Part shown: in pieces, positions 33,134-57,416 of the stretch | Position numbering within the stretch: the first letter of the stretch is position 1 | Layout: each line of letters opens with the position of its first letter | From: an uncultured Bacillales bacterium | GTDB lineage: Bacteria > Bacillota_I > Bacilli_A > RF39 > UBA660 | Assembly: GCA_946410555.1 (NCBI GenBank) | Contig: CAMKAT010000004.1 | Location: forward strand, 1 to 63,627 | Length of the DNA stretch: 63,627 nt | Reading direction: 5' to 3' | The notes under the pieces: generated by a model | The model's database searches: none | What the model saw: the letters and a program-made list of their open reading frames with translations, nothing else | Told to the model about the DNA's origin: nothing | Translations under genes and position numbers: made by a program

Positions 33134-33225
33134 AATAATCATAAGGGTTTAAAACTTTTTTTAATTATTATAATACAGGTAATCATTAAATATGAAACAA
33201 TGATATAATGTTGTTGAGGTGTCTT

Positions 33226-33996
33226 ATGGATAAGAGTTTATATGAAATGATATTTAAGAGAAAGTCTTTTCATTTATTTCGAAATATAGGTAATGAAAAA
33301 ATCAGCAATGATGAATTAAAAGATATTGAGAATAAATTTAATGATTTAAAACCACTTGTGAAGGATATTAAAGTCAAAATAAAAATAGTTAAAGATTCAA
33401 CTACTTGTAAAAGAGGACAAGAGTATTGCATACTATTTTATTCAGAAAAGAAAGATAATTATCTTCAAAATATTGGTTATATAGGAGAACAGTTGGATCT
33501 TTACTTAGTATCTAAAAATATCGGTACTTTATGGTTTGGAATAGGAAAAGTTGAAGAACCTAAAATTGACAATTTAGATTTTGTTATTATGATTGCTATT
33601 GCAAAGGTAGATAAAGAAGATAAATTTAGAAAAGATATGTATAAGAGTAAAAGAAAAGCATTATCTGAAATATGGGAGGGTGATAATCTTCTAGATATAG
33701 GAAATATCGTTCGTTTTGCTCCAAGTGCATGTAATACTCAACCATGGAGAGTTGAATCTTCTGATAATATATTAAAAGTATATAGATATCGAAAAGAAGG
33801 TAAAAGAGGAATAATGCCTAAGGATATGGTTATATACTATAATCAAATAGATATTGGTATATTCTTATGTTTCTTAGAATTATGTTTAGAGAAAAACAAT
33901 ATATCTTATAACAAAAAAATATATGTAGAATCAAATCATGAAAATGAAAATAATTTAGTTGCTGAATATATAATAAAAAACACTAACTTTTGTTAG
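33226..33996 (+). CDS. Nitroreductase-family protein
   Basis: IFKRKSFHLF N-terminal FMN-binding pattern and RFAPSACNTQPWR motif. GAGGTG RBS before ATG 33226. Confidence 0.8.
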   Translation: MDKSLYEMIFKRKSFHLFRNIGNEKISNDELKDIENKFNDLKPLVKDIKVKIKIVKDSTTCKRGQEYCILFYSEKKDNYLQNIGYIGEQLDLYLVSKNIGTLWFGIGKVEEPKIDNLDFVIMIAIAKVDKEDKFRKDMYKSKRKALSEIWEGDNLLDIGNIVRFAPSACNTQPWRVESSDNILKVYRYRKEGKRGIMPKDMVIYYNQIDIGIFLCFLELCLEKNNISYNKKIYVESNHENENNLVAEYIIKNTNFC

Positions 33997-34018
33997 TGTT
34001 TTATTTTCTAAATGGCAC
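33977..34018 (+). repeat. Cassette-end repeat, copy D (abuts the recombinase element)
   Basis: AAAACACTAAC-tttt-GTTAGTGTTTT then ATTTTCTAAATGGCAC. The hairpin encodes the last codons (KNTNFC-stop) of the nitroreductase. Confidence 0.75.
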
Positions 34019-34109
34019 GGTAATCGAACGAGTTTCCAAATTATAATTTACCACTTATTCAATTTCCTTTGCTGTTTAAATTATACTATATATTTATAAT
34101 TTTAACAAC

Positions 34110-35792
34110 CTAGTTAGCAAAACTTTCACTAACTTTTTTTAATAAATTAGTTGGCTCTGTTAAGTATAAATATATAGTCTTTTCTTTTTCAATAACACTT
34201 TTTGGTTTTACTTTGATTATCTTAAATAATAATACATCTAAATAATAATCATAATCTTCTGATAATGTATATGCCATTAACTTATGCTTTTTCTTTAATA
34301 ATTCAATATATTCCAAAGCATCTTTTTCATGTTTCATTGTTGATATTGAAGCCTTATATACACCAGTACCAATTATTTTATCAACCATATTTCCATTAGT
34401 ATAATCTAATAGTTCATTAACTTTATTTGGTTTTAATTTTAAATCTGTTATATCAACCGATGTTATTTTATTTCTTGATGTCTTATATTCCTTAATTGTT
34501 ATTTTATCTACATACTTTCCTATAAACTCACATTTTGTTTCATAAGATGTCATATTCCATAATTCGTTTAAATCATTTTTTGTTAATGCTTTTCTTTTTT
34601 CTTCAATAATACTTTCATCTATTGCAAATCTTAATCTATGGTCTAATCTACAATTATTAAAATCATTTGCTGTCTTTTTATCAGTTATATAATAATTCTC
34701 ACTAATTAAATTAGATAGTTCAAATAAGTTATTTAATTCACTCATAAGTGCCTTTTCTATAAGTTCTTCTCTAATGTATGTTCCACAATCTTTGCACTTA
34801 TAATATAGATATTCAGTTTTATTTGGTTTCCTTGTTCCATTACAAGCCATTATTCTTCCACATTTAGGACACACTAATCTTTGTATAAATAAATATCTTT
34901 TTGACCTATAATAATTTCTGCCATTTCTAAATATCATATCTTGGCAGTCATTAAATAAATCTTCTGAAACTATTTTAGGAACAATATCTACAATTTCTAT
35001 TGTTTCTTTATTATCAATACTTTTTCTATATTCATAAGTACCCATATAACATTTATTATTCAATATACAAGATATAGAACTATCAGTCCAACTTCTATAT
35101 GTTATTTTTTCTTCATTTGTATTTTTATCTTTTCTAATAGATGATATTACATTAGGATACTTTTCTTTTAATATATTAGATATTTGAAAATATGTTTTTC
35201 CACTCGCACATAGTTCAAATATTTCTCTAACTATTTTTGCTTCATCTTCATTGATAATCCATTCTTTTAATTTCTTTCCATCATCATCTAATTTAGTTTT
35301 ATAACCAAGAGGGGGCTTACCACCAAAATGCCCCTTATTAACAGCACTTTCAACTCCGACCAATGTTCTTTCTTTTATTAGTTCTCTTTCAAATTGAGCA
35401 AATATGCCTAATATACGAGCAAACATCATACCTGCTGCACCATTAGTATCTATCTTTTCACATAAGAACTCAATACCACAATTATACTTTTTAATTTCAT
35501 TAAAGAAAGTTTCAAAATCAACTATACTACGACTTATTCTATCCATTTTGAAAGCCATAATTAAATTGAACTTCCCTTTTTTCATATCTTTCATCATTTG
35601 TTGATAGGCTGGTCTATTTTCAGTAGACTTACCACTAATACCAGCATCAGTATATACCTTATAAACTTTATAATTGTTTGCTTCACACATTGCTCTTAAT
35701 CTTTTCTCTTGTTCTTCTAATGAATGTCCTTCTCGGGCTTGGTCTGTTGTACTAACTCTTGTATATATAGCAACTAACTTTTCTTCAACCAT
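34110..35792 (-). CDS. Large serine recombinase (integrase)
   Basis: VAIYTRVSTTDQ catalytic Ser motif, recombinase domain (GGKPPLGYK), zinc ribbon CPKCGR...YYKCKDCG, C-terminal coiled-coil region; 560 aa. Confidence 0.92.
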   Translation of the reverse strand: MVEEKLVAIYTRVSTTDQAREGHSLEEQEKRLRAMCEANNYKVYKVYTDAGISGKSTENRPAYQQMMKDMKKGKFNLIMAFKMDRISRSIVDFETFFNEIKKYNCGIEFLCEKIDTNGAAGMMFARILGIFAQFERELIKERTLVGVESAVNKGHFGGKPPLGYKTKLDDDGKKLKEWIINEDEAKIVREIFELCASGKTYFQISNILKEKYPNVISSIRKDKNTNEEKITYRSWTDSSISCILNNKCYMGTYEYRKSIDNKETIEIVDIVPKIVSEDLFNDCQDMIFRNGRNYYRSKRYLFIQRLVCPKCGRIMACNGTRKPNKTEYLYYKCKDCGTYIREELIEKALMSELNNLFELSNLISENYYITDKKTANDFNNCRLDHRLRFAIDESIIEEKRKALTKNDLNELWNMTSYETKCEFIGKYVDKITIKEYKTSRNKITSVDITDLKLKPNKVNELLDYTNGNMVDKIIGTGVYKASISTMKHEKDALEYIELLKKKHKLMAYTLSEDYDYYLDVLLFKIIKVKPKSVIEKEKTIYLYLTEPTNLLKKVSESFAN

Positions 35793-35808
35793 TTTTAATC
35801 TCCTTTCT

Positions 35809-36153
35809 TTAACAATTTTCTAATAAACTTTTATTTATTTGTTCTTCATCATCTTTTTTATCTGCTGATGTTTCAAATAACTTTTTTAATTTAGGCATTT
35901 TATAATTTTCATCTTTTAACTTTGCCTTTCTTTTAAACATACGAAAACCCATTACTTTTTCCATTGTGACATAGACATTAGTAATTGTTTTTACATAATT
36001 ACCATTTTCATCATAAATAGGTTCTTCTTCATATCTTACATTATCTTTGCCATATCTTTCTTCCCAGTTTATAGGAATTAGAGGTGTAGGCATTTTTTCT
36101 TCAATTTCATATATTTGTGGTACAAATACCATTTTTGAATTTTTTCTTTTCAT
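35809..36153 (-). CDS. Hypothetical protein (114 aa), upstream of and co-oriented with the recombinase
   Basis: ORF 16 nt upstream of the recombinase gene; no motif recognised. Confidence 0.55.
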   Translation of the reverse strand: MKRKNSKMVFVPQIYEIEEKMPTPLIPINWEERYGKDNVRYEEEPIYDENGNYVKTITNVYVTMEKVMGFRMFKRKAKLKDENYKMPKLKKLFETSADKKDDEEQINKSLLENC

Positions 36154-36271
36154 ATACTAAAACTCCTTTCTTCATATTGAGTTTAACAACTTTTTATGAT
36201 ATATTAGATATCAATATTGAAAATGTTTTTGTATTTACATTTTCCATATATCTTAAAAGGAATGATAGTTA

Positions 36272-37123
36272 ATGAATTATGGTAAAGAATTTATATTATT
36301 TGAAAATATGAGTACCAAAGAAATAAGTATTAAAAGTAATAATAAGCATTATAAATTAGGTTTTGAAACTGCCTTTGATATTTTAACCAAAGAACAACAA
36401 TTATTATTAGATAGATTATTTAATTATGCCAATAGTTTTAATTCAGGTTATGTTGATAGTATTGTTTGGTATTCTTTTTTAGCCACATCAAATATAGAAT
36501 TACCACTTATAAAAGAACAATATAAATACAATAATATTGATAACATAAAAGATATAGATATATCAGTACAAAGAAGTGGAAGAAATATAAATAGCCATTT
36601 AACTAAAAATGATTTTACTGATAATAATTTATATCAAATGAAAAAGACACCATTATTTCAAATTTCTAATAATGAAAATATGAATAATGATGATTTTTGT
36701 ATGATATTACAAAAGACTATTTACTATAAAACTGATACTGAATTTTTATTAGGCTTATTACATTCTATTTTTTCCACATCCAAGCAATATTATTTAAAGA
36801 AATGTAATAGATGTGGAAAATACTATATAACTAATAAAACTGATAATTGTTATTGTAATAGGGAATATGAGTATAATAATAAAACCATATCTTGCAGTGA
36901 TATTGCTAAAATACTAAAAAAATCTTATGCCTATGTTGAATTAAATAAAAAACACAAATCTTTCTTACAAACATTAAATAAAAATAAAAATGTTAAAACT
37001 GAATATATTGAAACATATAAAATAGAGCATAAGAAAAAAGTAAAAGAGTATGTTAGAACTATGAATATCAATCCACTAAAAGATTTTATAAATACATATG
37101 AAGAATTACACCCATATAACTAA
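36272..37123 (+). CDS. Hypothetical Cys-rich protein (283 aa)
   Basis: CNRCGKYY...CYCN...C cluster suggests a zinc-binding module. Confidence 0.6.
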   Translation: MNYGKEFILFENMSTKEISIKSNNKHYKLGFETAFDILTKEQQLLLDRLFNYANSFNSGYVDSIVWYSFLATSNIELPLIKEQYKYNNIDNIKDIDISVQRSGRNINSHLTKNDFTDNNLYQMKKTPLFQISNNENMNNDDFCMILQKTIYYKTDTEFLLGLLHSIFSTSKQYYLKKCNRCGKYYITNKTDNCYCNREYEYNNKTISCSDIAKILKKSYAYVELNKKHKSFLQTLNKNKNVKTEYIETYKIEHKKKVKEYVRTMNINPLKDFINTYEELHPYN

Positions 37124-37713
37124 TATTTATTAACCATATTATAAAATGTACTTGGTTTAAGACCTAGTTGTTCTATTGCTTCTTTTGTTTTAATTTCTTT
37201 ATTTTTCCATTTATTAACCACAATATCAAAATTTTGTGGTTTTTCTATTGTTGGTCTACCAAACTTAATTCCTTTATTCATTGCTGTTGATATACCTTCT
37301 TTTTGCCTTTGTTTAATAAAAGTTCTTTCTTGCTCTGCGACATAAGATAATATTTGTAAAATTAAATCACTAATAAATGTACCTAATAAATCTTTATTTT
37401 TAGTAGTATCTAATAATGGCATATCTATAACTACAATATCAGCCTTAATATTCTTTGTAATATCTTTCCACTCATCAATAATCATATTATAATTTCTTCC
37501 AAGTCTATCAATGCTTTTAATAACTAAAATATCATTTTCCCTTAATATATGTTTTAAGATATTATATTGCTCTCTATCAAAATCTTTTCCACTTTGTTTG
37601 TCTATATAAATATCTCTTTCATCAATACCATAATTTTTAAATGCTATTATTTGTCTTTCTTCATTTTGTTCTTTACTACTAACTCTTGCATAACCAAATA
37701 TTTTGTTTTTCAT
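37120..37713 (-). CDS. Small serine recombinase (resolvase/invertase family)
   Basis: IFGYARVSSKEQNEERQ catalytic motif and a C-terminal HTH (TKEAIEQLGLKPSTFYNMV); 197 aa. Confidence 0.9.
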   Translation of the reverse strand: MKNKIFGYARVSSKEQNEERQIIAFKNYGIDERDIYIDKQSGKDFDREQYNILKHILRENDILVIKSIDRLGRNYNMIIDEWKDITKNIKADIVVIDMPLLDTTKNKDLLGTFISDLILQILSYVAEQERTFIKQRQKEGISTAMNKGIKFGRPTIEKPQNFDIVVNKWKNKEIKTKEAIEQLGLKPSTFYNMVNKY

Positions 37714-37723
37714 AATATAAAAC

Positions 37724-37954
37724 CTACCTTGCTAAATAATCGCTCGTTTCTCTATATATCTTATCGATGATGTCACAATCAAAAGTTTTATAGAAATCTA
37801 CTTTTATATTTTTCTTCTTTAACTCATCAATAAAATTAGAACAAGCAATAGTATATGGGAAATCATTTTCATTTTCTTCAATCCCAGTTAATAGAGTATC
37901 AATATAATCATCGCATACAGAAGATACTATTTTTCTTAATGCAAATCTTTCCAT
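37724..37954 (-). CDS. Hypothetical protein (76 aa)
   Basis: AAGGAGG RBS precedes the ATG at 37954. Lies immediately upstream of the resolvase gene. Confidence 0.5.
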   Translation of the reverse strand: MERFALRKIVSSVCDDYIDTLLTGIEENENDFPYTIACSNFIDELKKKNIKVDFYKTFDCDIIDKIYRETSDYLAR

Positions 37955-38144
37955 TTTATGCCACCTCCTTACCATATGAAGAATAATTATATGATACTTT
38001 TTTCGTTCTTAAAAGGCTTTTTCTTTAAAAAGGTTATGAATGACTTTTTACATATCCAAAAAAGAAATAGGGACTTTATTACATAAAAAAGAGACTTAAT
38101 TTCATATAAAATTAAATCTCCAATAAAGTGTACTTTTTTAAATA

Positions 38145-40673
38145 TTATAATTTTTCATAATCAACCTTTTCTTTATAATCTCTATTATTCCCAGAATTAT
38201 TATATAAAAATAATACTTTTTCTTGTTCTGAATTTAAGTCATAATTAACTTTTTTTAATATACTGTCTACTTTTTCTCTAGTAGTATATAATTTTAAATT
38301 TTCATTTGAAAAATCATATCTTTCGTCCATTCCATAATAAGTTGTTATAAACATCCCCAAGAATTTAAATATTGTTTTATTATTAACATATGACATAACA
38401 TATTTTTTTAATTTTTCTTTATCTTCTATATTTCTATATAATAACCAAAAATACTCTCTACTATTTTCAGCATTAAAAATATTTACTTTATTATTTATAT
38501 CTAATTCTAATTTCTCTTCTAGTTTTCCTTTACCATAATTATATATAAATTCTTTATGACTATTTTGTTCATATTTATCTGGTTTTAACCATCTCAATAC
38601 TTCTTCTAATAAGAAATAATCTTTTTCATATATTAAGTCTATATATTCTTTTTGCTTACCTTGTTCTTGTTCATTATCTATAATAGATGATAATAATATT
38701 TTAGCTCTATCACAAGAATTAAGTCCTAAAAATCTGATGCCATCTTCATACTTATCAATATTATCTAAAACATAATCAAATATGGAAGAACTATCACTTA
38801 TTTCTTTTATGCGAATATTTAATAATTCAAATAATAAATCATGGTTATTAGGATTAACTTTTCTAATTATATAATTAAATTCTTTTTCTATTTTTTTACC
38901 ATTATTTACATTAGTTATAAAATCATTAACCAAAATATTTAACTCTGTAAAAAATGAGTGCCTAATAGTAAAGTAGTTCTTAAAAAATCTACCATTATAA
39001 CATCTTCTATTTTTTATTGAGTTAATTCTATCATCATTAACTACATAATAATATTTTTCCTTAATCGGCTGATTATCATCATATTTTTTTACATTTGGAA
39101 AAACATAGCATAATAATTCTTTTATTTTTTCATCTTTAAATAAATCATCAAAAAACTGTTTTGCTTCTTCATTATACTTTTCTGGCCATATATATTCATA
39201 TTCCATACCATAATTACTATCTTCTGATATAAAATACTTTGAATTGTTATATATATTATTATATAATGTGATATCTTTAAATTTGATAAATTCTAAAACT
39301 AAATAATCAGAAATATCTAATTTTAAAATATAAAGAAACTTAATAGATGTTGAAATGGAATTTATAAACCTTATTACTTCTCGTAAATCTTCAAAATTAT
39401 TAAATATTAAATTTGATATTTTTGAAAAATGATTTTTGTCAGTAATGTCTATATTATAAATATTTAGTAGATTAGATAAACATTTTGTTCCAATATCAAT
39501 AATCTTTTCTTTTTCTATAATTGGAACATACACCTTATCTTGCACTATCTTATTCAAATAATCGCTATCTATTTTTAGTTCTTGTTCAAATATTTTTTTA
39601 ATTCTTGTTTCATCATAACTTAATATATAAACGATGTTATCAAAATCAAAAATATTTTTAACCATTTTAAATGTAAATAATATTTCTTCTTTGCCTAATC
39701 TATCAATATCATCAATAACAATAATTATTTTTTTATCGTTATATTTAATAATATCATTTATTTGTTTTTTTATTGTTTCTAATTCTTGCTCATCATCTTC
39801 AGCAAAAATAGTAGGTAATGAAATATTAGTTGTCCTTTCTATCATATTGAAAATTACCTTTTCATATTTTTTTAGCATACTTTTATAATTAACATAACCA
39901 TAATTTTTGCCAATAAGTTTAAATATATAATTATAAAAACCTCTAAATAAACTAATCTTATTGTCATATTTCCAAGGACTAAAGGTATCAATTAAACAAA
40001 TATTACTACTATTAATTTTAAGTTTTAATAAATTTATTATGCTGGTTTTACCACAACCCCATTTACCAATAAGAGATGTTACAAAAGTCTTTTTAGGATT
40101 ACAGTGAAGTAAACTATCTCTAATACTATCAGTAAATAAAGATAAATCTAATAAATCTTCATTTTCACTTTTTATTGCTTCTTCTTCAAGTAGAATGAAA
40201 CTTTGATTTGTATTTTTAATTTTATTGTTATAAAGGTCATAAATATTATATATATTGCTGTGTTTATCACTACTTTTTTTACTAATTTTTTCTATATGAA
40301 TTACTCGTATAATAACTATTAAAATATTAACTGCTAATATCAAAAACAAAATATTTTTCCAATAAGAATAATATACAATATAGCCATATATAGATAATAC
40401 TTCCGAAAATAGCAAGACAGTTATTATTTTATCAAAATAAGTCATTGTAGATAAAAATAATAAATTCCATAATTTTCTCTTAAATATTTCACATATAAAG
40501 TAAATTAGTATTAAAACTAATACTATCTCGGTATATATCATATTTTGTTCAGCAAATAATAAATTAGTTATATCTAAATAATCTAAAATAAAAATTATTG
40601 AACTGACTATGAAAGAAGTGAAAACTATTGAATAAAGGTTAAAAAAACTATGTAATTTCTTAAAATAATTCAT
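38145..40673 (-). CDS. Membrane-anchored KAP-family P-loop NTPase
   Basis: About four N-terminal TM helices, Walker A LIGKWGCGKTSIINLL, Walker B KKIIIVIDDIDRLGKEE, and a long helical C-terminal region. GGGTGA RBS before the ATG at 40673. Confidence 0.8.
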   Translation of the reverse strand: MNYFKKLHSFFNLYSIVFTSFIVSSIIFILDYLDITNLLFAEQNMIYTEIVLVLILIYFICEIFKRKLWNLLFLSTMTYFDKIITVLLFSEVLSIYGYIVYYSYWKNILFLILAVNILIVIIRVIHIEKISKKSSDKHSNIYNIYDLYNNKIKNTNQSFILLEEEAIKSENEDLLDLSLFTDSIRDSLLHCNPKKTFVTSLIGKWGCGKTSIINLLKLKINSSNICLIDTFSPWKYDNKISLFRGFYNYIFKLIGKNYGYVNYKSMLKKYEKVIFNMIERTTNISLPTIFAEDDEQELETIKKQINDIIKYNDKKIIIVIDDIDRLGKEEILFTFKMVKNIFDFDNIVYILSYDETRIKKIFEQELKIDSDYLNKIVQDKVYVPIIEKEKIIDIGTKCLSNLLNIYNIDITDKNHFSKISNLIFNNFEDLREVIRFINSISTSIKFLYILKLDISDYLVLEFIKFKDITLYNNIYNNSKYFISEDSNYGMEYEYIWPEKYNEEAKQFFDDLFKDEKIKELLCYVFPNVKKYDDNQPIKEKYYYVVNDDRINSIKNRRCYNGRFFKNYFTIRHSFFTELNILVNDFITNVNNGKKIEKEFNYIIRKVNPNNHDLLFELLNIRIKEISDSSSIFDYVLDNIDKYEDGIRFLGLNSCDRAKILLSSIIDNEQEQGKQKEYIDLIYEKDYFLLEEVLRWLKPDKYEQNSHKEFIYNYGKGKLEEKLELDINNKVNIFNAENSREYFWLLYRNIEDKEKLKKYVMSYVNNKTIFKFLGMFITTYYGMDERYDFSNENLKLYTTREKVDSILKKVNYDLNSEQEKVLFLYNNSGNNRDYKEKVDYEKL

Positions 40674-40717
40674 AAAATCACCCAAGTAATATTATATCAT
40701 TAAAAAATGCCTTTTGT

Positions 40718-41218
40718 TTAGGCATTTACATATATTTCTTTTATTTCTTCATTAGGTAATACCAATGTAAAATCAATATTATATTGATTAACTAATATTT
40801 CTAATTTATCAGCAACTATTTTTCCAATATCATTATGTTTATAACCATGTACCCCAGTTCCTATACTTACGCTAACAATATTTTTATAATCTTTTTCTTT
40901 CGCTGAAATAAAGATATCACTATAACTTTCTAATAGTTCGCTGATTGGATCTTTGCTTTGATGATATTTAGGACAATAAATATGCAAGATATCTATACCT
41001 ATATTAAATCCTGGGGTAAATCTAATCTCATTGACTTTCATATTATCTTTAAAATGTTCTTTACAATATTTTTCTAATAAATTTTTACCAGCCATTTTAT
41101 ATATTGCTCCACAAACACCACTACCATATATCATATATTGATTAGCACTATTAACTATTAAATCTTTATTGTCTAAATAATCAAATATATTACCACTCAC
41201 AATATTTAATTTAGCCAT
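40718..41218 (-). CDS. Stand-alone macro domain protein (ADP-ribose binding/hydrolase fold)
   Basis: LIVNSANQYMIYGSGVCGAIYKMAG and VSIGTGVHGYKH match the N-x-A-N...G-x-G-V...A-G and T-G-x-x-G macro signatures. Confidence 0.75.
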   Translation of the reverse strand: MAKLNIVSGNIFDYLDNKDLIVNSANQYMIYGSGVCGAIYKMAGKNLLEKYCKEHFKDNMKVNEIRFTPGFNIGIDILHIYCPKYHQSKDPISELLESYSDIFISAKEKDYKNIVSVSIGTGVHGYKHNDIGKIVADKLEILVNQYNIDFTLVLPNEEIKEIYVNA

Positions 41219-41242
41219 AATAACAACTCCATATCATAATAT

Positions 41243-42058
41243 TTAATTATAGTCTTTATCTTTAATGGTATTTATAAAAGTTTCTTTTTTTCTACCGATA
41301 TTTATATTATCTAAATAAAAACTCCCTGAGCCAATTAGCCAAAAAATCTTATCAACTTTATAAGGGGTTTCATCAACTATATTTGCCATTTCTATTACTG
41401 CTTTATATGCTGAATAATCATTATTTTCACATAAATTAAAGAAAGCAAATATATCTTTTATATGTACATCTGGTTTTGGGTACTTATCATAACCAAGTTC
41501 CTTTAAAAAATCACAAGCAAGTGGAAAACCTAAACCAACTATTTCTCTTTCTAATAACATTGGCAGTGCTGCAGAAGATAGTTCATTATAATCAAACATA
41601 CTAACAAACTTATCAAAATCATTAACATCACTAAATCTATTTATAAACTCACAAGCTGATATAACTGATTTAGCATATAATCTCCACAAATTATTTTTGC
41701 TATCTATATTTTTTACATTAAAATGATTATCAAAAGTATTTAATAAACTATCACAATTATAATGTTCTAATATTTTATTGCTATCATAATCAAACAATAA
41801 TTTCTTAAATATATTTTTTCTTTCTTCCTTTTCTAAACCTATAACATTTGATGACATTTGTCTGTTTTGTAATGATACTAATAACCCATACAATATATCA
41901 TTTTTTGATTTAAACTTTTTTTCAACTTTTAAATATTTATTCAAATCTAAATTTGGATTTATATTATTTAAGTAATTTACTGCTTCATTATATAAAACTT
42001 TATATCTATTATATTTATCAATATCAAATATTTTCTTCACAACAAACACCTCATACAT
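41243..42058 (-). CDS. Hypothetical protein with an HhH-GPD-like (DNA glycosylase superfamily) motif
   Basis: IVGLGFPLACDFLKELGYDKYPKPDVHIKDIF parallels EndoIII [29 protein letters not shown] and AlkA GIGRWTANYF...LPDDYLI (helix-hairpin-helix plus catalytic Asp). Judged by eye only. Confidence 0.45.
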   Translation of the reverse strand: MYEVFVVKKIFDIDKYNRYKVLYNEAVNYLNNINPNLDLNKYLKVEKKFKSKNDILYGLLVSLQNRQMSSNVIGLEKEERKNIFKKLLFDYDSNKILEHYNCDSLLNTFDNHFNVKNIDSKNNLWRLYAKSVISACEFINRFSDVNDFDKFVSMFDYNELSSAALPMLLEREIVGLGFPLACDFLKELGYDKYPKPDVHIKDIFAFFNLCENNDYSAYKAVIEMANIVDETPYKVDKIFWLIGSGSFYLDNINIGRKKETFINTIKDKDYN

Positions 42059-42190
42059 AAAATATTATAACATATATAACTAATATCTTATGTTTATTAC
42101 CGATTATTTCGCTCATATTTCGTTTTTAAAATAAAATCAACATATTTTATTATCTCAATACAAAATATCTTTTATATAACATTTATCAAA

Positions 42191-42835
42191 CTAATTATTT
42201 TTAATCTTATTAACTACATACATAAATGTCCCAGTATTTTCATCATCTAATTTACTATAACATTTCCAATTTATATAATAACTATCTTTTAATACAATAG
42301 GTTTTTCACAATTTTTCATAGTTCCTTTACTCGCTGTCTTTTCCCAAAACATTGTACCACTTTTAACTATTTTATCTTCTAATGAAAATTGCTTATACAC
42401 ACAATTCTTTTTTAATGGCTTTTTTATATAACTTATATCATTAGTTATAAACATTGTATACCCAGTATCAAACTCTTTAACATTATTTCTTATTTTCTCA
42501 ATTCTCATAATATCTTTTAAATATAAATAACTATTAACATCTTTTGCACCATGATTTTTTAAATTAAATATTTCATCATCAACAACTTTGGTACAACCTT
42601 TTGTCTTATACTTTAATTCAATAGGATACCATTTATTATCTATAATAACTAATATATCAATATGCATATTTAAATCAAAAGTAGGGCAATACTCTAATCT
42701 TATCTTCGCATTAGGATAATTTTCTTTAATAGTCCAAGCAAGTTCTAATTGAAAATCGGCTTCTGATACAAATATTTTTCTTCTTTCTTTTAATTTATCA
42801 ACTATTAACCCCATATCTAAAAAATTACTACCCAT
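42191..42835 (-). CDS. PD-(D/E)xK nuclease-fold protein
   Basis: SEADFQLELAW ... HIDILVI ... YPIELKYK gives the E ... D ... E-x-K arrangement of restriction-endonuclease-like nucleases. Confidence 0.6.
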   Translation of the reverse strand: MGSNFLDMGLIVDKLKERRKIFVSEADFQLELAWTIKENYPNAKIRLEYCPTFDLNMHIDILVIIDNKWYPIELKYKTKGCTKVVDDEIFNLKNHGAKDVNSYLYLKDIMRIEKIRNNVKEFDTGYTMFITNDISYIKKPLKKNCVYKQFSLEDKIVKSGTMFWEKTASKGTMKNCEKPIVLKDSYYINWKCYSKLDDENTGTFMYVVNKIKNN

Positions 42836-42969
42836 ATTTTATGCTCCTTATAGTTATTTTCCTATAAGAACATTATAACATAAAATATATGTTTTTACAC
42901 ATACTAATATTAGTTAATATTACTATCACTGAAAACTAATAATTTTAAAATTATATATAGGTGGTACTT

Positions 42970-43308
42970 ATGAAATATAATAACCAAAACAATTTACAAA
43001 CTATAAGAAAGAAATTAGGATTAAAACAAATTAAAGTTGCTATGGATTTAGGAACTACCCAAGAAACTATATCATCTTATGAAACGGGTAGGGTCTTTCC
43101 TAATATTGATATGTTAATTGCATTAGCCAAATACTATAATACATCTATTGACTATCTTTTAGGTTTAACTAAATATGATATTCCTACTAACGATATTAAA
43201 CCTAACAACATAACTGATGATGACTTTATGTTATTAACTAAAATCAATAAACTATCTTCTATCAATAAAGCAAAAGCAGAAGCCTATATAGATGGTCTTA
43301 ATGACTAA
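42970..43308 (+). CDS. XRE-family HTH transcriptional regulator (repressor-like)
   Basis: LQTIRKKLGLKQIKVAMDLGTTQETISSYETGRVFPNIDMLIALAKYYNTSIDYLLGL. Divergent from the nuclease gene. Confidence 0.88.
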   Translation: MKYNNQNNLQTIRKKLGLKQIKVAMDLGTTQETISSYETGRVFPNIDMLIALAKYYNTSIDYLLGLTKYDIPTNDIKPNNITDDDFMLLTKINKLSSINKAKAEAYIDGLND

Positions 43309-43512
43309 TCATATATAGGACTTTTTCTTTTTATTCTACTTTTAACTATATATTTTAACCAATTCTATATCTTACCCCTATAATAATATTACTCATTATA
43401 TTATCCGTATATTAACTGACTTTACTATGTAAAATCATTCATTATTATATTACTTATTATATCAAAATTATGTATCTATTATATGATAGTTATTTATACT
43501 ATCTTTTTTTAA

Positions 43513-44328
43513 TTAAAGCCATATTTCTTCTTCGTATTTTCTTCTTTTCAAACTTTCATTTTCCTGTACTTTATTATTATTTATTATTTCGTAATTACTT
43601 GCTATCTTATCTAATTGAACTTGTTTCATCAACTTATCAACAACTTTTTTATCTTGGTCTTTTGACAAATCCCAATAAAAGTTTTTAATTTTATAATAGT
43701 TATCTTCAAGTTCTAATCTCTTTTTAGTTCCAATAGTTCTACAATATTTTAATGCTGTTCTTGCTTTCATATATGCCTTATATAAATCTTTTAAACTATA
43801 ACCTTTTGGAATTCTTTCTTCGCCCGTATAATTATAATTACAAAATAATACTTCATCTGCTTGGTCTATAAAATATTCGGCTTTATTTATATTTGTATCT
43901 TTCTTATATATTTTGCTTTTATCTTTTATTTTCCCATAGTCAAAAGGCTCTTTTTCTATTTTTAATTCATTCCAATTTTTATCAATATATTTTTTTATTT
44001 CTTCTCTAAAAGCATACATAGGCTTTGATACAAATAAAATATGTAAATGCCATTTAACTTTTATATCTTCATTAACACTATAATATTTATCTATAACCTT
44101 ACTAGGTCTACCAACTTTGCCATTATGTTCATAATATACCATTGTGCTATTACCTTTATTACTACTAACACAAATCATTGCTTCAGCCGACCAGCCTTTA
44201 TCTGCTTTCTTCTTACAAGTATATCTAATAAATTCTTTTAATCTTTTAGCATATCTTATTGCTTCCTCTTTATCTTTAAATCTCATATTCAAATCAAAAC
44301 TAGAAATACCTAATTTACTCTTTGACAT
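43513..44328 (-). CDS. Hypothetical protein, possible HUH-type Rep/relaxase
   Basis: KWHLHILFVSK fits the H-u-H-u-u-u motif. Downstream Tyr candidates are KAEYFIDQ and LYKAYMK. No search was run. Confidence 0.35.
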   Translation of the reverse strand: MSKSKLGISSFDLNMRFKDKEEAIRYAKRLKEFIRYTCKKKADKGWSAEAMICVSSNKGNSTMVYYEHNGKVGRPSKVIDKYYSVNEDIKVKWHLHILFVSKPMYAFREEIKKYIDKNWNELKIEKEPFDYGKIKDKSKIYKKDTNINKAEYFIDQADEVLFCNYNYTGEERIPKGYSLKDLYKAYMKARTALKYCRTIGTKKRLELEDNYYKIKNFYWDLSKDQDKKVVDKLMKQVQLDKIASNYEIINNNKVQENESLKRRKYEEEIWL

Positions 44329-44621
44329 TATGCTACACCATCTTTCATAGCAGTTAATATCAAATCAAGTTCTTTCATCTTTATAGGCATTTCTCTATTA
44401 TATAAAAACATATTATTCTCATCAAAATATAATACTATTATTTTCTTACCATTTAATTTAATATGAAATCTATGAGGCTCTATAAAACTAACATTAACTT
44501 TATCTAAATTGATAATCTTTCCTTGCTCGAACTTGTATTTTGCATTATGAAAATCACAAGTTATCATTATTTTACTTTCAAATTTCTCATTTCTTTTTAA
44601 CTCTATATAATCTTTTACCAT
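44328..44621 (-). CDS. Hypothetical protein (97 aa)
   Basis: AGGAGG RBS. Its stop overlaps the start of the downstream Rep-like gene (ATGA-type coupling). Confidence 0.6.
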   Translation of the reverse strand: MVKDYIELKRNEKFESKIMITCDFHNAKYKFEQGKIINLDKVNVSFIEPHRFHIKLNGKKIIVLYFDENNMFLYNREMPIKMKELDLILTAMKDGVA

Positions 44622-44721
44622 AATTTCCTCCTATTTTATGGCAAATTAAAACACGGATAAATTATTCGTTTTCCGTGCTTTTATATAGGTTAAATCCAAT
44701 TTTTTGGATTATTTCCAACAA

Positions 44722-44795
44722 TGGCAGGGGTGGAAGGAATCGAACCCTCCTCTGTGGTTTTGGAGACCATCATTCTACCGATGAACTACACCCCT
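44722..44795 (-). tRNA. trnW: tRNA-Trp (anticodon CCA)
   Basis: Cloverleaf AGGGGTG acceptor, anticodon loop CTCCAAA, T-loop GGTTCGATTCC, encoded CCA end. The 3' end faces the mobile element. Confidence 0.9.
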
Positions 44796-44888
44796 AAATC
44801 AAATTGATAATGTGATTATAACACGAAATTTGACCAATTGCTACAATTATGTTAAACTAGACGAAGTTTTTTTGAGGGGGGAATAGAT

Positions 44889-45698
44889 ATGAATAAAGAA
44901 CAAATTATTAAAAGTTTAAAAGAAATTAAAAATGTTATTTCTGTTACTTGCAGTAATACAATAGAAAGTATTACTACTAAAAAAGAAGATCTAACTACTT
45001 CTATTAATAAATTAGAAAAGAATACTCAAGAAGTTATTGGATTAAAAGATATATTAAGTAAAGTAGAATTAAGAGGTTCTATTCCTAACTTTATTCTTGA
45101 AGGCTATGAATCAGCTGATATAAAAGAAAAAAATGGAGTAAATTACTTAGAATTTATATATAGAGATGGTAAAGCTAGAGTAATTTGCCAAAAGTTAGAT
45201 GATAAATCTATATTTCCAAATTATAAATATAATATAGATAGAAAATTTAATGGTGAAAATGGTTTAGTTTCTTATAAATATAATACTCAAAATAATAGAG
45301 CAGACTATACTATGTGTGTTAGAGATGAAAATTGTGTATCTAATATTAAAGGTCAAGTTAAATCTACTAAAAAAAATGTATCATATATTGAAGCTGCATC
45401 TAAAGTTTATACATATAGATCATTAGAATTATTAAAACCATTCTTTAACTTTGATAATGAAAAGATTGAAATCGTATCTAATGTTGTTAATGGATTTAGA
45501 TCTCAATATTTACCTACATATGAAGATACATACACATGTAAAAGAGTAGGAGAAAAAGTAACTTTAGAATATAATGGTGAAGATAATTTTAATTCAATAG
45601 AATCATATAATGAAGGATTAGGAATGAAAGTTGGATTTGAATCTTATATAAATGGTGAAATGAGACCATTAGATGCTTTAGTTAGAATACTTAAGTAA
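44889..45698 (+). CDS. Hypothetical protein (269 aa)
   Basis: GAGGGGGG RBS and its own terminator (ataccag...ctggtat plus T-run at 45703-45728). Confidence 0.65.
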   Translation: MNKEQIIKSLKEIKNVISVTCSNTIESITTKKEDLTTSINKLEKNTQEVIGLKDILSKVELRGSIPNFILEGYESADIKEKNGVNYLEFIYRDGKARVICQKLDDKSIFPNYKYNIDRKFNGENGLVSYKYNTQNNRADYTMCVRDENCVSNIKGQVKSTKKNVSYIEAASKVYTYRSLELLKPFFNFDNEKIEIVSNVVNGFRSQYLPTYEDTYTCKRVGEKVTLEYNGEDNFNSIESYNEGLGMKVGFESYINGEMRPLDALVRILK

Positions 45699-45770
45699 TT
45701 TAAATACCAGGCTACTGGTATTTTTTTTGTGCCTTTATAATGTTATAATTTATATAAGGTGGTTGGTAGT

Positions 45771-47156
45771 ATGATAAATAATTTATCGTATCTTTCATTT
45801 TTGAATAAAAAGATATTTATTACTGATGAAGAATTAAATTATAAATTTGGTTTAGATAAATTATTAGTTAAAAACCAATATGAGTTTAATCTTTATAAAG
45901 AGAATATCAAATATTTAGTAACTGAAACATTAGAAAATGATGGTCTATTCAGATATGTATTAAAGAATATGGCTAATAAGAACTATGTATTTGCTATATC
46001 TTTTATATTATTAAAAGATGATGATGTCATAGGATCTATTTCATTAACTAAGAAAACTTATGCTTTATGTCTATATAAATTATTAAGTTTAGGTTTAAAA
46101 GATACAGCTCTAACTAGAGCACATAAGTTATTATCATTTACTACAATCGAAGAATGTAAAAAGAATAATACTTATTCAACTACTCAAATTACATTTAAAG
46201 ATGGTAATAAAATATCGATAAACAATATAGATTTGATTAATATATTTAATTCTAGTCCTGATTATATAAATGTAATAGCTAATAAAAATAATATAAGTGT
46301 TAATAATGTAAGACTATTAATGCTTATGTTTGCTTCAACTGGAATACTAAAGAAATACTTATTTAGTGATTCTGCTTATATTATGGAAGAAGAATTAAGA
46401 CACATTGATATATCTTCTTTAGTTATTGAAAAACACGACAAACCGAAACAAACATTAAATATTAAAATATATAATAAATTATTTGATTATATGGATGAAT
46501 CATATACCCCATTTGAAAAGTTAATGTTTGTATATAAACAAATGAAAGATATTCAATTTAGTATTCAAACTCTAGCTTTTGTAGCAGAAAACTTAGGAAT
46601 TGAATATAAATTAGATGGTAATCTCCTAGAAATATGGTATGAAGAATACAATATCTTATTCTCTAAGGAAAGATTTAGAATTCAAACTGATAACTCATCA
46701 ACTAGAATGAAAGTATATGAAATAGATGATAAGCTATCTGAAGATATAATTAATAAACGTACTACTGAAACAAGATTATTTAATAATATCGCATATTATA
46801 AGAATTTCTATTTAACCGATGGACCTAGTGATAGTGAAAAATTGATTACTTTCTTAAGAATAGCTTCATTTATTAAAGATTATGATTCGACCTTTTTAAA
46901 TAGAATTGAACATATTTATAAAAAGATCTTAGGACATGATGAAAACTCTAAGTTATATGTAATAACTAATGATTCAAGAAATAAAGAAATGAAGAAAGTA
47001 ATACCTATCGTAGTAGTAAAATATAATGATACTTATTATGTTATAGATCCAATTTCTAATATAAAAGTTAATAACTATAAAGATATAAACAATTATTTAG
47101 AGAATAAAGAATATTATTCTGAAATGATAAAAGGATGTGATTTTCTAAATGCTTAA
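45771..47156 (+). CDS. Hypothetical protein (461 aa), first gene of a six-gene operon
   Basis: Extended -10 TGTTATAAT at 45741-45749. AAGGTGG RBS before ATG 45771. Confidence 0.7.
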   Translation: MINNLSYLSFLNKKIFITDEELNYKFGLDKLLVKNQYEFNLYKENIKYLVTETLENDGLFRYVLKNMANKNYVFAISFILLKDDDVIGSISLTKKTYALCLYKLLSLGLKDTALTRAHKLLSFTTIEECKKNNTYSTTQITFKDGNKISINNIDLINIFNSSPDYINVIANKNNISVNNVRLLMLMFASTGILKKYLFSDSAYIMEEELRHIDISSLVIEKHDKPKQTLNIKIYNKLFDYMDESYTPFEKLMFVYKQMKDIQFSIQTLAFVAENLGIEYKLDGNLLEIWYEEYNILFSKERFRIQTDNSSTRMKVYEIDDKLSEDIINKRTTETRLFNNIAYYKNFYLTDGPSDSEKLITFLRIASFIKDYDSTFLNRIEHIYKKILGHDENSKLYVITNDSRNKEMKKVIPIVVVKYNDTYYVIDPISNIKVNNYKDINNYLENKEYYSEMIKGCDFLNA

Positions 47157-47358
47157 TAAATTAAGAGAAAAGACACAAGAATTATTGGATAGAAATGATG
47201 AAAATTTTAAAAAATATTCAATAATAAATGATATACTTAAAAATGAAAGATGTTTCTATGAGATGGATATGGATACATCTATTTCAATTATTATGGATTT
47301 AGGATATACATATGAGGATTCATTAAAGATATATTCTTATTTCATAATTAATTCATAG
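47149..47358 (+). CDS. Hypothetical small protein (69 aa)
   Basis: Start overlaps the upstream stop by 8 nt (translational coupling). Confidence 0.55.
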   Translation: MLNKLREKTQELLDRNDENFKKYSIINDILKNERCFYEMDMDTSISIIMDLGYTYEDSLKIYSYFIINS

Positions 47359-47367
47359 GGAGGTTTT

Positions 47368-47718
47368 ATGGAATTACCAATTATTAATCGTGAACTAGTA
47401 GATTTCACTAGTGATACTGAAGTAGTTAACATTGGATATAACGAAGGAGTATATGAAAATAGACCATATAGAATTGAAGTATGGGCAAGTTATGATATAG
47501 ATGTAGCTACTGTATTTATATCTAATATTGATTTATCAGAAAATAATATTAGAAAGTATTTAATAGATTCTAAGATTGTTAATATAATCGAAGATAATAT
47601 TAAAATAGATACAATCGAATCAGATGGTAATAAATTCTATTCAATTAATATTCCATTAAGAGATAGAACAAAAGTCTATAATGAAGTATTAGTAGACTTA
47701 AAACCATATGATTTATAG
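47368..47718 (+). CDS. Hypothetical protein (116 aa)
   Basis: Preceded by TAGGGAGGTTTTATGG, nearly identical to the junction before the next gene. Confidence 0.6.
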   Translation: MELPIINRELVDFTSDTEVVNIGYNEGVYENRPYRIEVWASYDIDVATVFISNIDLSENNIRKYLIDSKIVNIIEDNIKIDTIESDGNKFYSINIPLRDRTKVYNEVLVDLKPYDL

Positions 47719-47728
47719 GGAGGGTTTT

Positions 47729-48493
47729 ATGGTAGAACATAAGGATTTTAGAGAAGTTTTAGAAAATAATAATCAAAGACATGAAGTTGTAATTGGTTAT
47801 AACAAAAATAATGATGTAAGAGTAATAGATTTAAAAGAAAATCCATCAGTAATTGTTACTGGTGAAACAGGATCTGGAAAATCTATACTATTAGATCAAA
47901 TTGCATGCCAATTAATTAAAAATAATACTTCACTCGATATGGATTTCTTCCTAATTGATTCAAGTGGTGTAGAATTGAATCTATATGCTGACTCTAGATA
48001 TTCTAAAAATTATGCACTAAGAGATAATGATAAAGCTTTAAGTGTATTAGTAAAAGTGTTAAATATTATGGATGAAAGATATAGATTAATTCATTCAAAA
48101 GGATATATAACTGTAGATGAATATAATGAAAAAGAAGAGGAAAAGTTAAGTGATATAGTACTAGTAATAGATGATAATGATACATTTATAATGAATGAAG
48201 ATATCTCTAAACAAATTACTTCTTTAATTACAGGTTTAAAAGATACAAATATTTTCTTTATTGGAGCTTTCTCTAATACTGATAACTATTTCTTTAAATC
48301 TGATAAGAATACTTATTCATCAATTATTATCTCGTTTGATATGAGTGATGCTGAACATGCAAACTATGCTAATGTTCCAGGAGCAGAAGATTTACCTATA
48401 GGTAAATTCATAATATCTGAAGATAATGAGGATAAAGAGTATTATAATTTTGACTTTGATGATAAAATAATTGTTGAAACATTAAACAAATAG
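47729..48493 (+). CDS. Soluble FtsK/SpoIIIE (HerA-FtsK superfamily)-like P-loop ATPase
   Basis: NPSVIVTGETGSGKSILLDQI Walker A in FtsK-like context, Walker B IVLVIDDNDTF; no TM segments; 254 aa. Confidence 0.65.
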   Translation: MVEHKDFREVLENNNQRHEVVIGYNKNNDVRVIDLKENPSVIVTGETGSGKSILLDQIACQLIKNNTSLDMDFFLIDSSGVELNLYADSRYSKNYALRDNDKALSVLVKVLNIMDERYRLIHSKGYITVDEYNEKEEEKLSDIVLVIDDNDTFIMNEDISKQITSLITGLKDTNIFFIGAFSNTDNYFFKSDKNTYSSIIISFDMSDAEHANYANVPGAEDLPIGKFIISEDNEDKEYYNFDFDDKIIVETLNK

Positions 48494-48522
48494 TGTGTTA
48501 TAATGAAATTGGAGTGATATTT

Positions 48523-48912
48523 ATGGCAAGTACTGCACAAGAAAGATTAATTGAAATCGATAAACTAGATGGAACTCTACTTAATAGAAAGATTAAGTTC
48601 TCTAACGGAGAGTATAAAACAATTAAAGACTATTTAATTGAAATCTATCCAGATGAAATGGATTTTGATGCAGGAAAAATATTAACTGTACTACAAAGTA
48701 GAGCTAATAAAGCTGAAATGGATTATAAAGCATTCTTAAACGAAGTATTTGAAAAAGAGCTTAATGATCCTAAGTATTCTGAACCTATTAGAAAAGGTGA
48801 GAATGAATATATGTCATTCAGAGAATATATTGAAAGTTTACCAGTTGGTACAATCGTAAGTTATGATGATTCAACTGAAGAAAAAACTTCAAGTGAAAGC
48901 GTAGGCGAATAA
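48523..48912 (+). CDS. Hypothetical protein (129 aa)
   Basis: GGAG RBS before ATG 48523. Confidence 0.55.
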   Translation: MASTAQERLIEIDKLDGTLLNRKIKFSNGEYKTIKDYLIEIYPDEMDFDAGKILTVLQSRANKAEMDYKAFLNEVFEKELNDPKYSEPIRKGENEYMSFREYIESLPVGTIVSYDDSTEEKTSSESVGE

Positions 48913-48913
48913 A

Positions 48914-49555
48914 ATGATTAAATACGGTGTTAATGTTAACGGACAAATCAAAGATATTAAAGTTTTAGCTGTAAAATTCATAAATGATAAATATGAAGTA
49001 ATGCCAGAATTAAACGAAATCCAAGAACCATCTAAGGAAGAACAAGAAAGAGCAATTAAACAACATGAAGTAGGTAATGCTATTTACTTTACAGTTATGG
49101 ATGTTCTTGAAAGAGTTTGCAAAGATAGAGATTTAGACTTTGAAAAGACTAAAGAAGATTTAATGGAAACTATTATTGCAAATATTGCTACTAAATTCTC
49201 TGATTTAGTTGTTGCTAAATCAAATGGTTCATTAACAGATGAAATAAATAATATTATTAATAATGCTATTATTAATAAGCAAATGGCTAATAGTGTAAGA
49301 CAAGTTGAAGAAGAAGCTGAAAGAGAAATGCAAGAAACTGCTGTTTCTAAGATTGATGAAATAGTTCCTACTCAATTTGGACCAAGCTCAAGTACTTATA
49401 GAACAGATCTATTAAATGCAAATGAAATTAATGCATTTATTAATCCTGTTATGGGTGGTCCTGGTGATGAACAAGAGATTGAAGCTGGAGATGGAGTAGA
49501 AGAAACTGAAGTATTCTTAAATAAAGAAGATGAAAACAAAAAAATAAGAATGTAA
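48914..49555 (+). CDS. Hypothetical acidic protein (213 aa)
   Basis: Starts 1 nt after the upstream stop; acidic and helical; no motif recognised. Confidence 0.6.
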   Translation: MIKYGVNVNGQIKDIKVLAVKFINDKYEVMPELNEIQEPSKEEQERAIKQHEVGNAIYFTVMDVLERVCKDRDLDFEKTKEDLMETIIANIATKFSDLVVAKSNGSLTDEINNIINNAIINKQMANSVRQVEEEAEREMQETAVSKIDEIVPTQFGPSSSTYRTDLLNANEINAFINPVMGGPGDEQEIEAGDGVEETEVFLNKEDENKKIRM

Positions 49556-57319: not shown

Positions 57320-57336
57320 CTTTATTTTTTACATAT

Positions 57337-57413: not shown

Positions 57414-57416
57414 TTT

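Follow-up and report, generated by a model that had tools for sequence, protein, structure and literature searches.

Four co-oriented genes on the minus strand of contig CAMKAT010000004.1, from an uncultured Bacillales bacterium, probably constitute the cargo arm of an integrative element of ~10.8 kb. The window analyzed is 63,627 nt long. The genes encode, in the order of the operon, a 214-aa protein with a PD-(D/E)xK nuclease fold, a 271-aa protein with the helix-hairpin-helix (HhH-GPD) fold of DNA glycosylases, a 166-aa stand-alone macro domain and an 846-aa transmembrane KAP NTPase. As a cargo arm, they would be a mosaic of separately exchangeable units and not one system. A preliminary description of the locus had proposed a single undescribed four-gene defense system with one domain logic. 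This proposal fails because synteny is not conserved and because the KAP NTPase resembles known stand-alone defenses and HhH glycosylases have been reported as such. Each component has a described counterpart; the combination of four genes does not form a unit. The anatomy of the element, the folds of the proteins, the edges of the cassettes and the contents of the corresponding slot in sister elements are all shown by the analysis.

Exchangeable Cassettes and the Defense Slot

Blastn homology between the window and related loci runs from 34007-34013 to 44796-44799, and a large serine recombinase marks one of the ends; the location of the genes inside a serine-recombinase mobile element, already recognized in the preliminary description, is thus borne out by the sister elements (~34010-44798). 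With a 271-aa backbone protein of this element as bait (not the glycosylase, which has the same length), 23 more loci were fetched, and 23 complete copies of the element were catalogued. The fetched loci, which carry homologues or sister elements, are designated by L-numbers (L001, etc.).

Six sister elements (L005, L007, L008, L015 and L016 among them), the flanks of which are 88-98% identical, lack the KAP gene. Homology to these six covers 34010-38150 and 40680/40740-44798, and the gap corresponds exactly to the KAP gene. The edges of the KAP cassette are located at ~38143 and ~40724, as homology stops at ~38143-38153 and restarts at ~40677-40741. In six further sisters (L106, L107, L108, L110, L113 and L115), the segment ~41260-42093, which is exactly the glycosylase gene, is missing as well, and the macro gene comes straight after the 214-aa gene. 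Relative to these copies, the glycosylase gene is a clean insertion.

The KAP slot is bounded by the hydrolase gene on one side and by the pair of the 83-aa and small recombinase genes on the other. In the sister elements, it contains a DRT UG13b reverse transcriptase (L106 and L117; E = 5e-127 and 2e-124), the Gabija proteins GajA and GajB (L111; E = 2e-84 and 7e-36), the C5-methyltransferase of a type II restriction-modification (R-M) system (L113; E = 6e-95), PDC-S49, which is another, distinct KAP-like candidate (L114), a DUF4145 protein (L115) or an N6_N4 methyltransferase together with an EndoVII-like nuclease (L007). The slot is a defense hot spot, with the KAP gene as just one of its exchangeable occupants.

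Among the 23 complete copies, the KAP gene is present in three, the glycosylase gene in nine and the gene of a 198-aa membrane protein in five. The first position of the cargo arm (slot 1) is variable: it can be filled by the 214-aa protein (15 of 23 copies), an unrelated 188-aa protein (3 of 23), a 307-aa DUF4268 protein or a 245-aa protein. Nine copies combine the 214-aa and macro genes without a glycosylase. An ADP-ribose hydrolase is encoded in all 23, namely a macro protein in 20 and an ARH-type hydrolase, which has an unrelated fold, in the remaining three. A protein of ~200 aa with an N-terminal hydrophobic segment and no family match was seen in five copies (L018, L102 at 2589-3185, L109, L116 and L123), in each case after the first cargo gene and before that of the ADP-ribose hydrolase.

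Some observations weigh against the mosaic interpretation. The 23 element copies are not phylogenetically independent, and the gene calls in the fetched loci are crude longest-open reading frame (ORF) calls. KAP homologues 82%, 66% and 52% identical to the window protein directly follow an ADP-ribose hydrolase gene in the same element family. Furthermore, a glycosylase gene is found together with an ADP-ribose hydrolase gene again outside the window lineage (L034-36 and L127), so this pair is perhaps coupled. For the KAP gene, the simplest explanation of the adjacency is position rather than function, since the hydrolase is present whatever the slot holds.

In the mosaic model, the operon divergent from the XRE gene would belong to the backbone, usually opening with the 214-aa protein and always closing with an ADP-ribose hydrolase. 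This eraser would strip ADP-ribose off the targets of ADP-ribosyltransferase toxins, be they DNA, RNA or protein, and, in doing so, would shield the element or its host. The glycosylase, an optional cassette, would most likely excise a modified base from foreign DNA, like Dag and Brig. The occupant of the hot spot would be, here, a transmembrane KAP NTPase acting alone, whose KAP domain would hydrolyze NTP and thereby power the uncharacterized C-terminal region, which would stop phage at the membrane. All biochemical activities in this scheme, and any phage phenotype, are predictions. A conflict-related role of the region (defense or counter-defense) is plausible.

Organization of the Element

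The gene layout given in the preliminary description was found again. The four minus-strand ORFs occupy the positions that it listed, the intergenic gaps are short (132, 24 and 32 or 44 bp, the last depending on whether the KAP gene is counted from its TTG or its ATG), and the XRE gene is divergent from the 214-aa gene. For the KAP gene, the ATG at 40673 had been chosen; the 846-aa ORF has a TTG start at 40685. All motifs listed for the four proteins were seen again. The four fold or domain assignments stand as well, by Pfam for the KAP and macro proteins and by family profiles, AlphaFold2 (AF2) models and Foldseek for the other two; Foldseek on the predicted models returned a glycosylase fold for the 271-aa protein and a PD-(D/E)xK fold for the 214-aa protein.

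In cargo orientation, the element begins with the 97-aa and 271-aa backbone genes, the XRE gene on the opposite strand and the cargo operon. These are followed by the genes of the 83-aa protein, the small serine recombinase, a 283-aa protein (opposite strand), a 114-aa protein and the large serine recombinase (Table 1).

Table 1. Features of the integrative element, listed in cargo orientation.
Feature	Position	Strand	Remarks
tRNA-Trp(CCA) gene	44722-44795	-	ARAGORN; right element end
Backbone protein, 97 aa	44328-44621	-	kept in sister elements
Backbone protein, 271 aa (not the glycosylase)	43513-44328	-	kept in the family; bait for element copies
XRE-family HTH regulator	42961-43308	+	Pfam HTH_3, E = 8e-14; kept in sister elements
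PD-(D/E)xK-fold protein, 214 aa	42191-42835	-	first gene of the XRE-divergent operon; often part of the backbone
HhH-GPD-fold protein, 271 aa	41243-42058	-	Ogg2-like; optional cassette
Stand-alone MacroD-type macro domain, 166 aa	40718-41218	-	belongs to the backbone of the family
Inverted repeat AAATGCCT-7 nt-AGGCATTT	40705-40727	.	overlaps the stop codon of the macro gene; macro-side edge of the KAP cassette
Transmembrane KAP NTPase, 846 aa	38145-40685	-	TTG start; occupant of the variable defense slot
Backbone protein, 83 aa	37724-37975	-	immediately upstream of the small recombinase; marks the slot edge there
Small serine recombinase (resolvase/invertase type), 197 aa	37120-37713	-	Pfam Resolvase, E = 8e-25; kept in sisters; flanks the slot
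Large serine recombinase, 560 aa	34110-35792	-	Pfam Resolvase, Recombinase and Zn_ribbon_recom; left element end
tRNA-3'-like sequence ATGGCACGGTAATCGAAC	34013-34030	.	resembles ATGGCAGGGGTGGAAGGAATCGAAC at 44721-44745 (3' part of tRNA-Trp)

The 271-aa backbone protein has no match in Pfam, NCBIfam or PHROGs. It contains the sequence WHLHILF, an HUH-like motif of the H-hydrophobic-H type, and conserved tyrosines; it may be the rolling-circle Rep protein or the relaxase of the element.

The presence of a tRNA-Trp gene at the right edge and of a tRNA-3'-like sequence at the left suggests integration at tRNA-Trp, which is the probable site. The direct-repeat finder reported no att repeats; only inspection by eye, once the tRNA genes had been mapped, revealed the tRNA-like repeat. 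The sequence at 34013-34030 may be the displaced att repeat of the left end. Integration in a tRNA gene would be unusual for large serine recombinases. A phage origin of the element was considered and discarded, as a megablast search with 34000-48000 gave a single phage match of 83 bp and no plasmid match. In L106, the region 14793-15234 is 92% identical to 4244-4688, and a second element start follows right after the large serine recombinase gene; two related elements thus seem to have been inserted in tandem.

The KAP NTPase

The KAP protein matches Pfam KAP_NTPase (PF07693) with E = 5e-41 (141.2 bits, cut-off 20). Its Walker A motif GKWGCGKT corresponds to residues 207-214 and its Walker B segment IIVIDDIDR to residues 321-329. 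The KAP domain spans residues ~185-445 and is followed by a C-terminal region of ~400 aa without a Pfam domain. A Kyte-Doolittle scan located four hydrophobic segments within residues ~13-135 and none inside the NTPase domain. Many prokaryotic members of the family have transmembrane helices inserted in this domain (Aravind et al. 2004, as cited in PMC13552941).

The KAP protein has counterparts among named defenses. The PADLOC model of PifA matches the KAP protein with E = 4.2e-39, although only over residues 296-615, which correspond to model positions 160-481 of 720, and the protein fits the transmembrane-KAP single-gene defenses (PMC13552941). A tblastn search among 72,556 plasmids (E<=1e-3) gave 52 records, with KAP-family genes in Bacillus and others, and no Escherichia record was among the matches; the protein is therefore not a close relative of F PifA.

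In other loci with a KAP gene, the gene order is 188-aa, ARH, KAP in L101 and 188-aa, 198-aa, macro, KAP in L102. L130 and L131 contain a 214-aa homologue, a macro gene and a KAP gene, in this order, in a decayed element that adjoins a TM1586-type nitroreductase gene; in L130, the recombinases have been lost, yet these three genes are retained. Intact KAP genes without a macro gene or any other hydrolase gene are found in decayed elements and at chromosomal sites (L103-105 and L129). An early view, in which the KAP gene was wholly unrelated to its neighbors, was weakened by the homologues located beside ARH or macro genes; the census then showed that the hydrolase is a backbone gene.

The nitroreductase gene lies at 9206-9916 in L130 and is also present in the window (33208-33996), just past the recombinase end of the intact element, which suggests a shared chromosomal neighborhood. 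In L103 (1-5000), a 50%-identical KAP homologue and element remnants adjoin an NAD biosynthesis/NrtR cluster, with genes for NAD synthase, phosphoribosyl pyrophosphate (PRPP) synthetase, a nicotinamide mononucleotide (NMN) adenylyltransferase-like protein, CinA, NAD kinase and Nudix-NrtR.

Just upstream of the KAP start, a TG-extended -10-like site is visible on the minus strand. This site is suggestive at most, because the promoter scan of this AT-rich DNA (20-25% GC) gave 74 sites, not above the 71 expected from shuffles.

The HhH-GPD Glycosylase Family

Direct searches of PDB, NCBIfam, PHROGs and PADLOC with the 271-aa and 214-aa sequences gave nothing useful. Family profiles and AF2 models were needed for both proteins. 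For the 271-aa sequence, the score against Pfam Ogg-HhH is 15.1 bits, below the cut-off of 27, and there is no NCBIfam match. A profile of 37 homologues, on the contrary, matches the Ogg2 glycosylase/lyases 3knt and 3fhf with E of about 1e-3 (9e-4 for 3knt). The alignment covers GLGFPLACDFLKELGYDKYPKPDVHI and pairs GLGF...PKPDVHI with GIGY...IIDRHI. The catalytic Asp of the latter aligns to D197 (PKPDVH), which is invariant in the 37 homologues. The position of the Schiff-base Lys (GIGYK) is occupied by Pro179 in the window protein and by Ala in most homologues. As the lyase Lys is missing, the protein is probably monofunctional.

The AF2 model has a mean predicted local distance difference test (pLDDT) value of 93.9. 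Its best Foldseek matches are MjOgg, Tm1821, EndoIII, Mag2, AGOG and Mag1, with a probability of 1.0 for the first three.

The family is large (1002 matches). Homologues were located in 80 species-representative genomes, among which are Bacillota, Patescibacteria, Bacteroidota, Chloroflexota and archaea. The co-occurrence of glycosylase, macro and KAP genes implied by a single system was not observed: no KAP homologue lies within 10 kb of the glycosylase homologue in any of the 80 genomes, and four other contexts (L001-L004) also lack one. The macro gene adjoins the homologue in only the eight closest of these genomes, and the 214-aa protein accompanies it in just three. Elsewhere, the glycosylase gene is mostly solitary or located behind R-M genes. 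The recurrent families among 105 flanking proteins are methyltransferases (Eco57I, MmeI and N6), Mrr, type I S subunits, WYL and ADP-ribosylglycohydrolase; the neighbors are enriched in R-M, WYL and other defense genes. A PDDEXK_5-like protein of ~140 aa (NIGNAGEYFVAAELERRGF...) repeatedly adjoins the 271-aa homologues, in L040 (10816-11256), L042, L093 and L095, and it also adjoins a 214-aa homologue in integrative and conjugative elements (ICEs). In 50,697 phage genomes searched by tblastn, no homologue of either the 271-aa or the 214-aa protein was found.

The 214-aa PD-(D/E)xK Protein

Across 33 homologues of the 214-aa protein, residues E25, D60, E73 and K75 do not vary. In the AF2 model (pLDDT 95.2), they are positioned on the elements H25-39, E59-65 and E68-77, as expected for the alpha-beta-beta-beta-alpha-beta core of the superfamily with its E...D...ExK motif. 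The Foldseek matches in PDB are weak to modest, but all are PD-(D/E)xK nucleases (RecU, HincII, MGME1, Hjc and EcoRV), and the top BFVD match is annotated as a PD-(D/E)XK nuclease (E = 1.9e-3, probability 1.0). An additional beta domain is made up of the last ~80 residues.

Homologues of this protein occur in several other settings. In ICEs, they are encoded beside a MobL relaxase, with a different downstream partner, and one homologue is located after an R-M-like operon. A 41%-identical homologue (L132, NZ_CP007453.1, 4998-5627) is inserted in a prophage carried by a Peptoclostridium megaplasmid, with the terminase large subunit gene on one side and the portal gene on the other, which is a classic moron position. 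The 188-aa protein that replaces the 214-aa protein in slot 1 was examined as a distant homologue and rejected (hhalign probability 0.2%); only the resemblance of a D...ESKYK motif is left.

The Macro Domain and the ADP-Ribose Hydrolases

The 166-aa protein consists of a macro domain only (Pfam Macro, E = 2.8e-17) and is predicted from its sequence to be an ADP-ribose hydrolase. Its best PDB matches are of the MacroD type (5lcc, E = 3e-11). The macro loops, of the N-x6-GGG and G-[IV]-[YF]-G types, are represented by NSANQYMIYGSGVCGAIY and GTGVHGY, which align to 5lcc and 5l9k. The catalytic Asp of MacroD (GGGVDGAI) is replaced by Cys (GSGVCGAI), and those sister macro proteins that were inspected share this Cys. 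Viral macro domains with Ala at that Asp position are active.

The C-terminal DarT-binding domain of the DarG type is absent from the 166-aa protein. The module is not DarTG, as the preliminary description had rightly stated, and no DarT or other ADP-ribosyltransferase was matched in Pfam or PADLOC among the four genes and their neighbors.

Alternative Explanations

The alternative that survives best, although unlikely, is that the upstream trio, or at least the glycosylase and hydrolase pair, forms one module acting on adducted DNA, with the KAP gene separate from it. The glycosylase would remove ADP-ribosylated or modified bases, the macro or ARH protein would remove or recycle ADP-ribose, and the PD-(D/E)xK protein would cut at the lesion. 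Such a module could serve as counter-defense against DarT-like toxins or as defense against decorated phage DNA. In its favor, three or four separate settings place a glycosylase gene beside a hydrolase gene, and the hydrolases belong to two unrelated folds. The glycosylase and macro genes form the pair in the window lineage and in L017-22. In L127, the gene of a divergent 260-aa HhH-GPD protein (family profile E = 1.3e-6; Pfam HhH-GPD 0.014) abuts a macro gene. Outside the element family, the homologue is followed by an ARH gene at 4 nt in L035 and L036, and the ARH gene is located upstream in L034. The ARH of L035 is 48% identical to the backbone ARH of L101. Two unrelated hydrolase folds in the same relation to the glycosylase suggest that catalysis is what is selected. 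Moreover, orphan ADP-ribose erasers carried by phages counter DarTG (PMC11825919). On the other hand, about 70 of the 80 genomic glycosylase homologues have neither a macro nor an ARH gene in the loci examined, the nine element copies with the 214-aa and macro genes do without a glycosylase, another gene separates the glycosylase and macro genes in L018 and L022, and the 50,697 phage genomes contain no homologue of the glycosylase or of the nuclease.

The connection that the preliminary description made between an ADP-ribose eraser and a base-excision fold may survive as a two-gene association, but not within a four-gene surveillance system. Stated more generally, and with considerable doubt, this HhH-GPD family would process ADP-ribosylated or sugar-adducted DNA bases together with an interchangeable macro or ARH protein, often with a PD-(D/E)xK nuclease in addition; separately, an ADP-ribose eraser would be an obligatory backbone function of small defense-carrying integrative elements. 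If true, the module would be a mobile-element counter-defense against DNA ADP-ribosylation of the DarT type or a defense that destroys foreign DNA decorated in this way. The position of an HhH glycosylase beside ADP-ribose hydrolases of two folds is possibly the one new point.

There is little to recommend the explanation that the 214-aa nuclease and the macro protein serve the life cycle of the element, for example by acting on transfer or replication intermediates, without any role in conflict, only the slot cargo being defensive. Their position and conservation in the element backbone are consistent with such a role, as is the location of 214-aa homologues beside relaxase genes in ICEs. However, slot 1 itself varies, a member of the 214-aa family is also found as a moron in a prophage, and we know of no precedent for a life-cycle need of ADP-ribose removal.

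Very improbable is a toxin/antitoxin-like pair, in which the macro or ARH protein would be the regulator or antitoxin of the KAP protein, keeping it silent by removal of ADP-ribose. A macro or ARH gene precedes the KAP gene in four lineages, including a non-homologous displacement of macro by ARH. Nevertheless, the hydrolase is equally present with Gabija, DRT, R-M or nothing in the slot, the KAP gene is intact without a hydrolase in L103-105 and L129, and the transmembrane-KAP defenses in the literature each function as one gene (PMC13552941).

Hardly credible, finally, is one undescribed defense system of all four genes, in which the macro, glycosylase and nuclease proteins would sense ADP-ribosylated or modified nucleic acid and signal to a KAP abortive-infection effector: co-orientation, short gaps, one common divergent XRE promoter region, a KAP gene straight after an ADP-ribose hydrolase gene in four lineages (window, L101, L102 and L130) and the genes retained in L130 speak for it, but the full set was seen in this window alone (a 99%-identical KAP protein, P0241, is not covered), the sister slots hold Gabija, DRT or R-M with the other genes unchanged, the glycosylase is missing from all other KAP-bearing copies, and intact KAP genes also occur alone, so that synteny largely refutes this reading.

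Other Features of the Window

The GC content of the window is about 20-30%. Past the tRNA-Trp end of the element, at 44889-49555, a block of unannotatable genes is found, with an FtsK/SpoIIIE-type ATPase at 47708-48493; this block may be a second mobile element beside the first. Ten tRNA genes (Ser, Met, Asp, Phe, Leu, Val, Thr, Tyr, Gln and Lys) are clustered at 57227-58239 and account for a local GC peak of 0.43.

Significance

Tight clusters of co-oriented genes on mobile elements can be mosaics, and calling a system from one locus overstates novelty. The region delimits a family of compact elements, about 10-12 kb in size, that share an XRE regulator and two serine recombinases, one large and one small; the present copy abuts a tRNA-Trp gene. 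The defense slot of the family is clearly bounded and can be mined for new single-gene defenses, which independently supports the idea of using recombinases as bait. In addition, an unnamed, widespread family of HhH glycosylases (>1000 clusters, in bacteria and archaea) joins the candidates for glycosylase-based immunity. The elements raise the questions of why they always carry an ADP-ribose eraser and why this eraser recurs beside glycosylases.

Comparison with Known Systems

DarTG differs from the window locus in several respects: the latter has no DarT, and its macro protein is of the MacroD type and not of the DarG type, without a DarT-binding domain. Orphan DarG and NADAR erasers (AdfN) encoded by phages act as counter-defense against DarTG (PMC11825919). 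Like these, the window macro protein is stand-alone, on a mobile element and without a cognate transferase nearby; the orphan erasers, however, are located on phages, whereas the window gene is part of an integrative element.

Among enzymes of known structure, the Ogg2 proteins MjaOgg (3knt) and Tm1821 (3n0u) are the best profile and structure matches of the 271-aa protein, with the HhH hairpin and the catalytic Asp aligned. The identity is about 18% and the TM-score 0.5-0.66, and Pro or Ala replaces the Schiff-base Lys. The 271-aa protein also has an extra N-terminal region of ~60 residues and a mobile-element rather than a housekeeping context.

As for defense, diverse HhH glycosylases on integrons, Dag1-17, protect against phages with 7-deazaguanine DNA and have been reported as stand-alone defenses (Getz et al., bioRxiv 10.1101/2025.10.29.685425). 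Brig1 (Nature 2024, PMC11078745) is a precedent for defense by a glycosylase of the uracil-DNA glycosylase (UDG) fold, which differs from the HhH fold of the 271-aa protein. Like Dag and Brig1, the 271-aa protein is small, stand-alone, diverged and glycosylase-like, is encoded on mobile DNA among R-M and defense genes and is missed by curated models. Like the Dag proteins, it is an HhH protein on horizontally transferred DNA, set apart from the housekeeping enzymes. Dag1 has a Lys-Asp pair and is apparently bifunctional, whereas the 271-aa family has no Lys at the canonical Ogg2 position. The invariant K186, D197, D236 and W240 of this family recall K118, D132, D184 and W188 of Dag1, as a pattern only.

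PifA of the F plasmid, which excludes T7, is a KAP-family NTPase like the window protein, although the PADLOC model matches only part of the latter. Pif is triggered by T7 gp1.2 or gp10, with membrane permeability lesions. To our knowledge, an N-terminal membrane anchor of four helices is not a described feature of PifA.

The closest parallel for the KAP protein comes from a study that used small serine recombinases as bait, in which KAP NTPases were enriched (Andersen et al., PLoS Biol 2026, PMC13552941; RADS). In that study, single proteins that combine transmembrane helices and a KAP domain with an uncharacterized C-terminal region protected E. faecalis from phage. The protection required the Walker B motif and the C-terminal region and was not abortive infection, and three further examples from gut metagenomes worked as well. 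The window protein has the same architecture, with N-terminal transmembrane helices, a KAP domain and a long domain-less C-terminal region. Its gene is likewise separated by one small ORF (83 aa) from a small serine recombinase gene in gut-metagenome DNA of the Bacillota type, and its slot is likewise interchangeable with known defense systems. EF_KAP has one N-terminal helix and one helix inside the KAP domain, whereas all four helices of the window protein are N-terminal. Likened by architecture and context rather than by sequence, the window KAP protein fits this class of transmembrane-KAP defenses.

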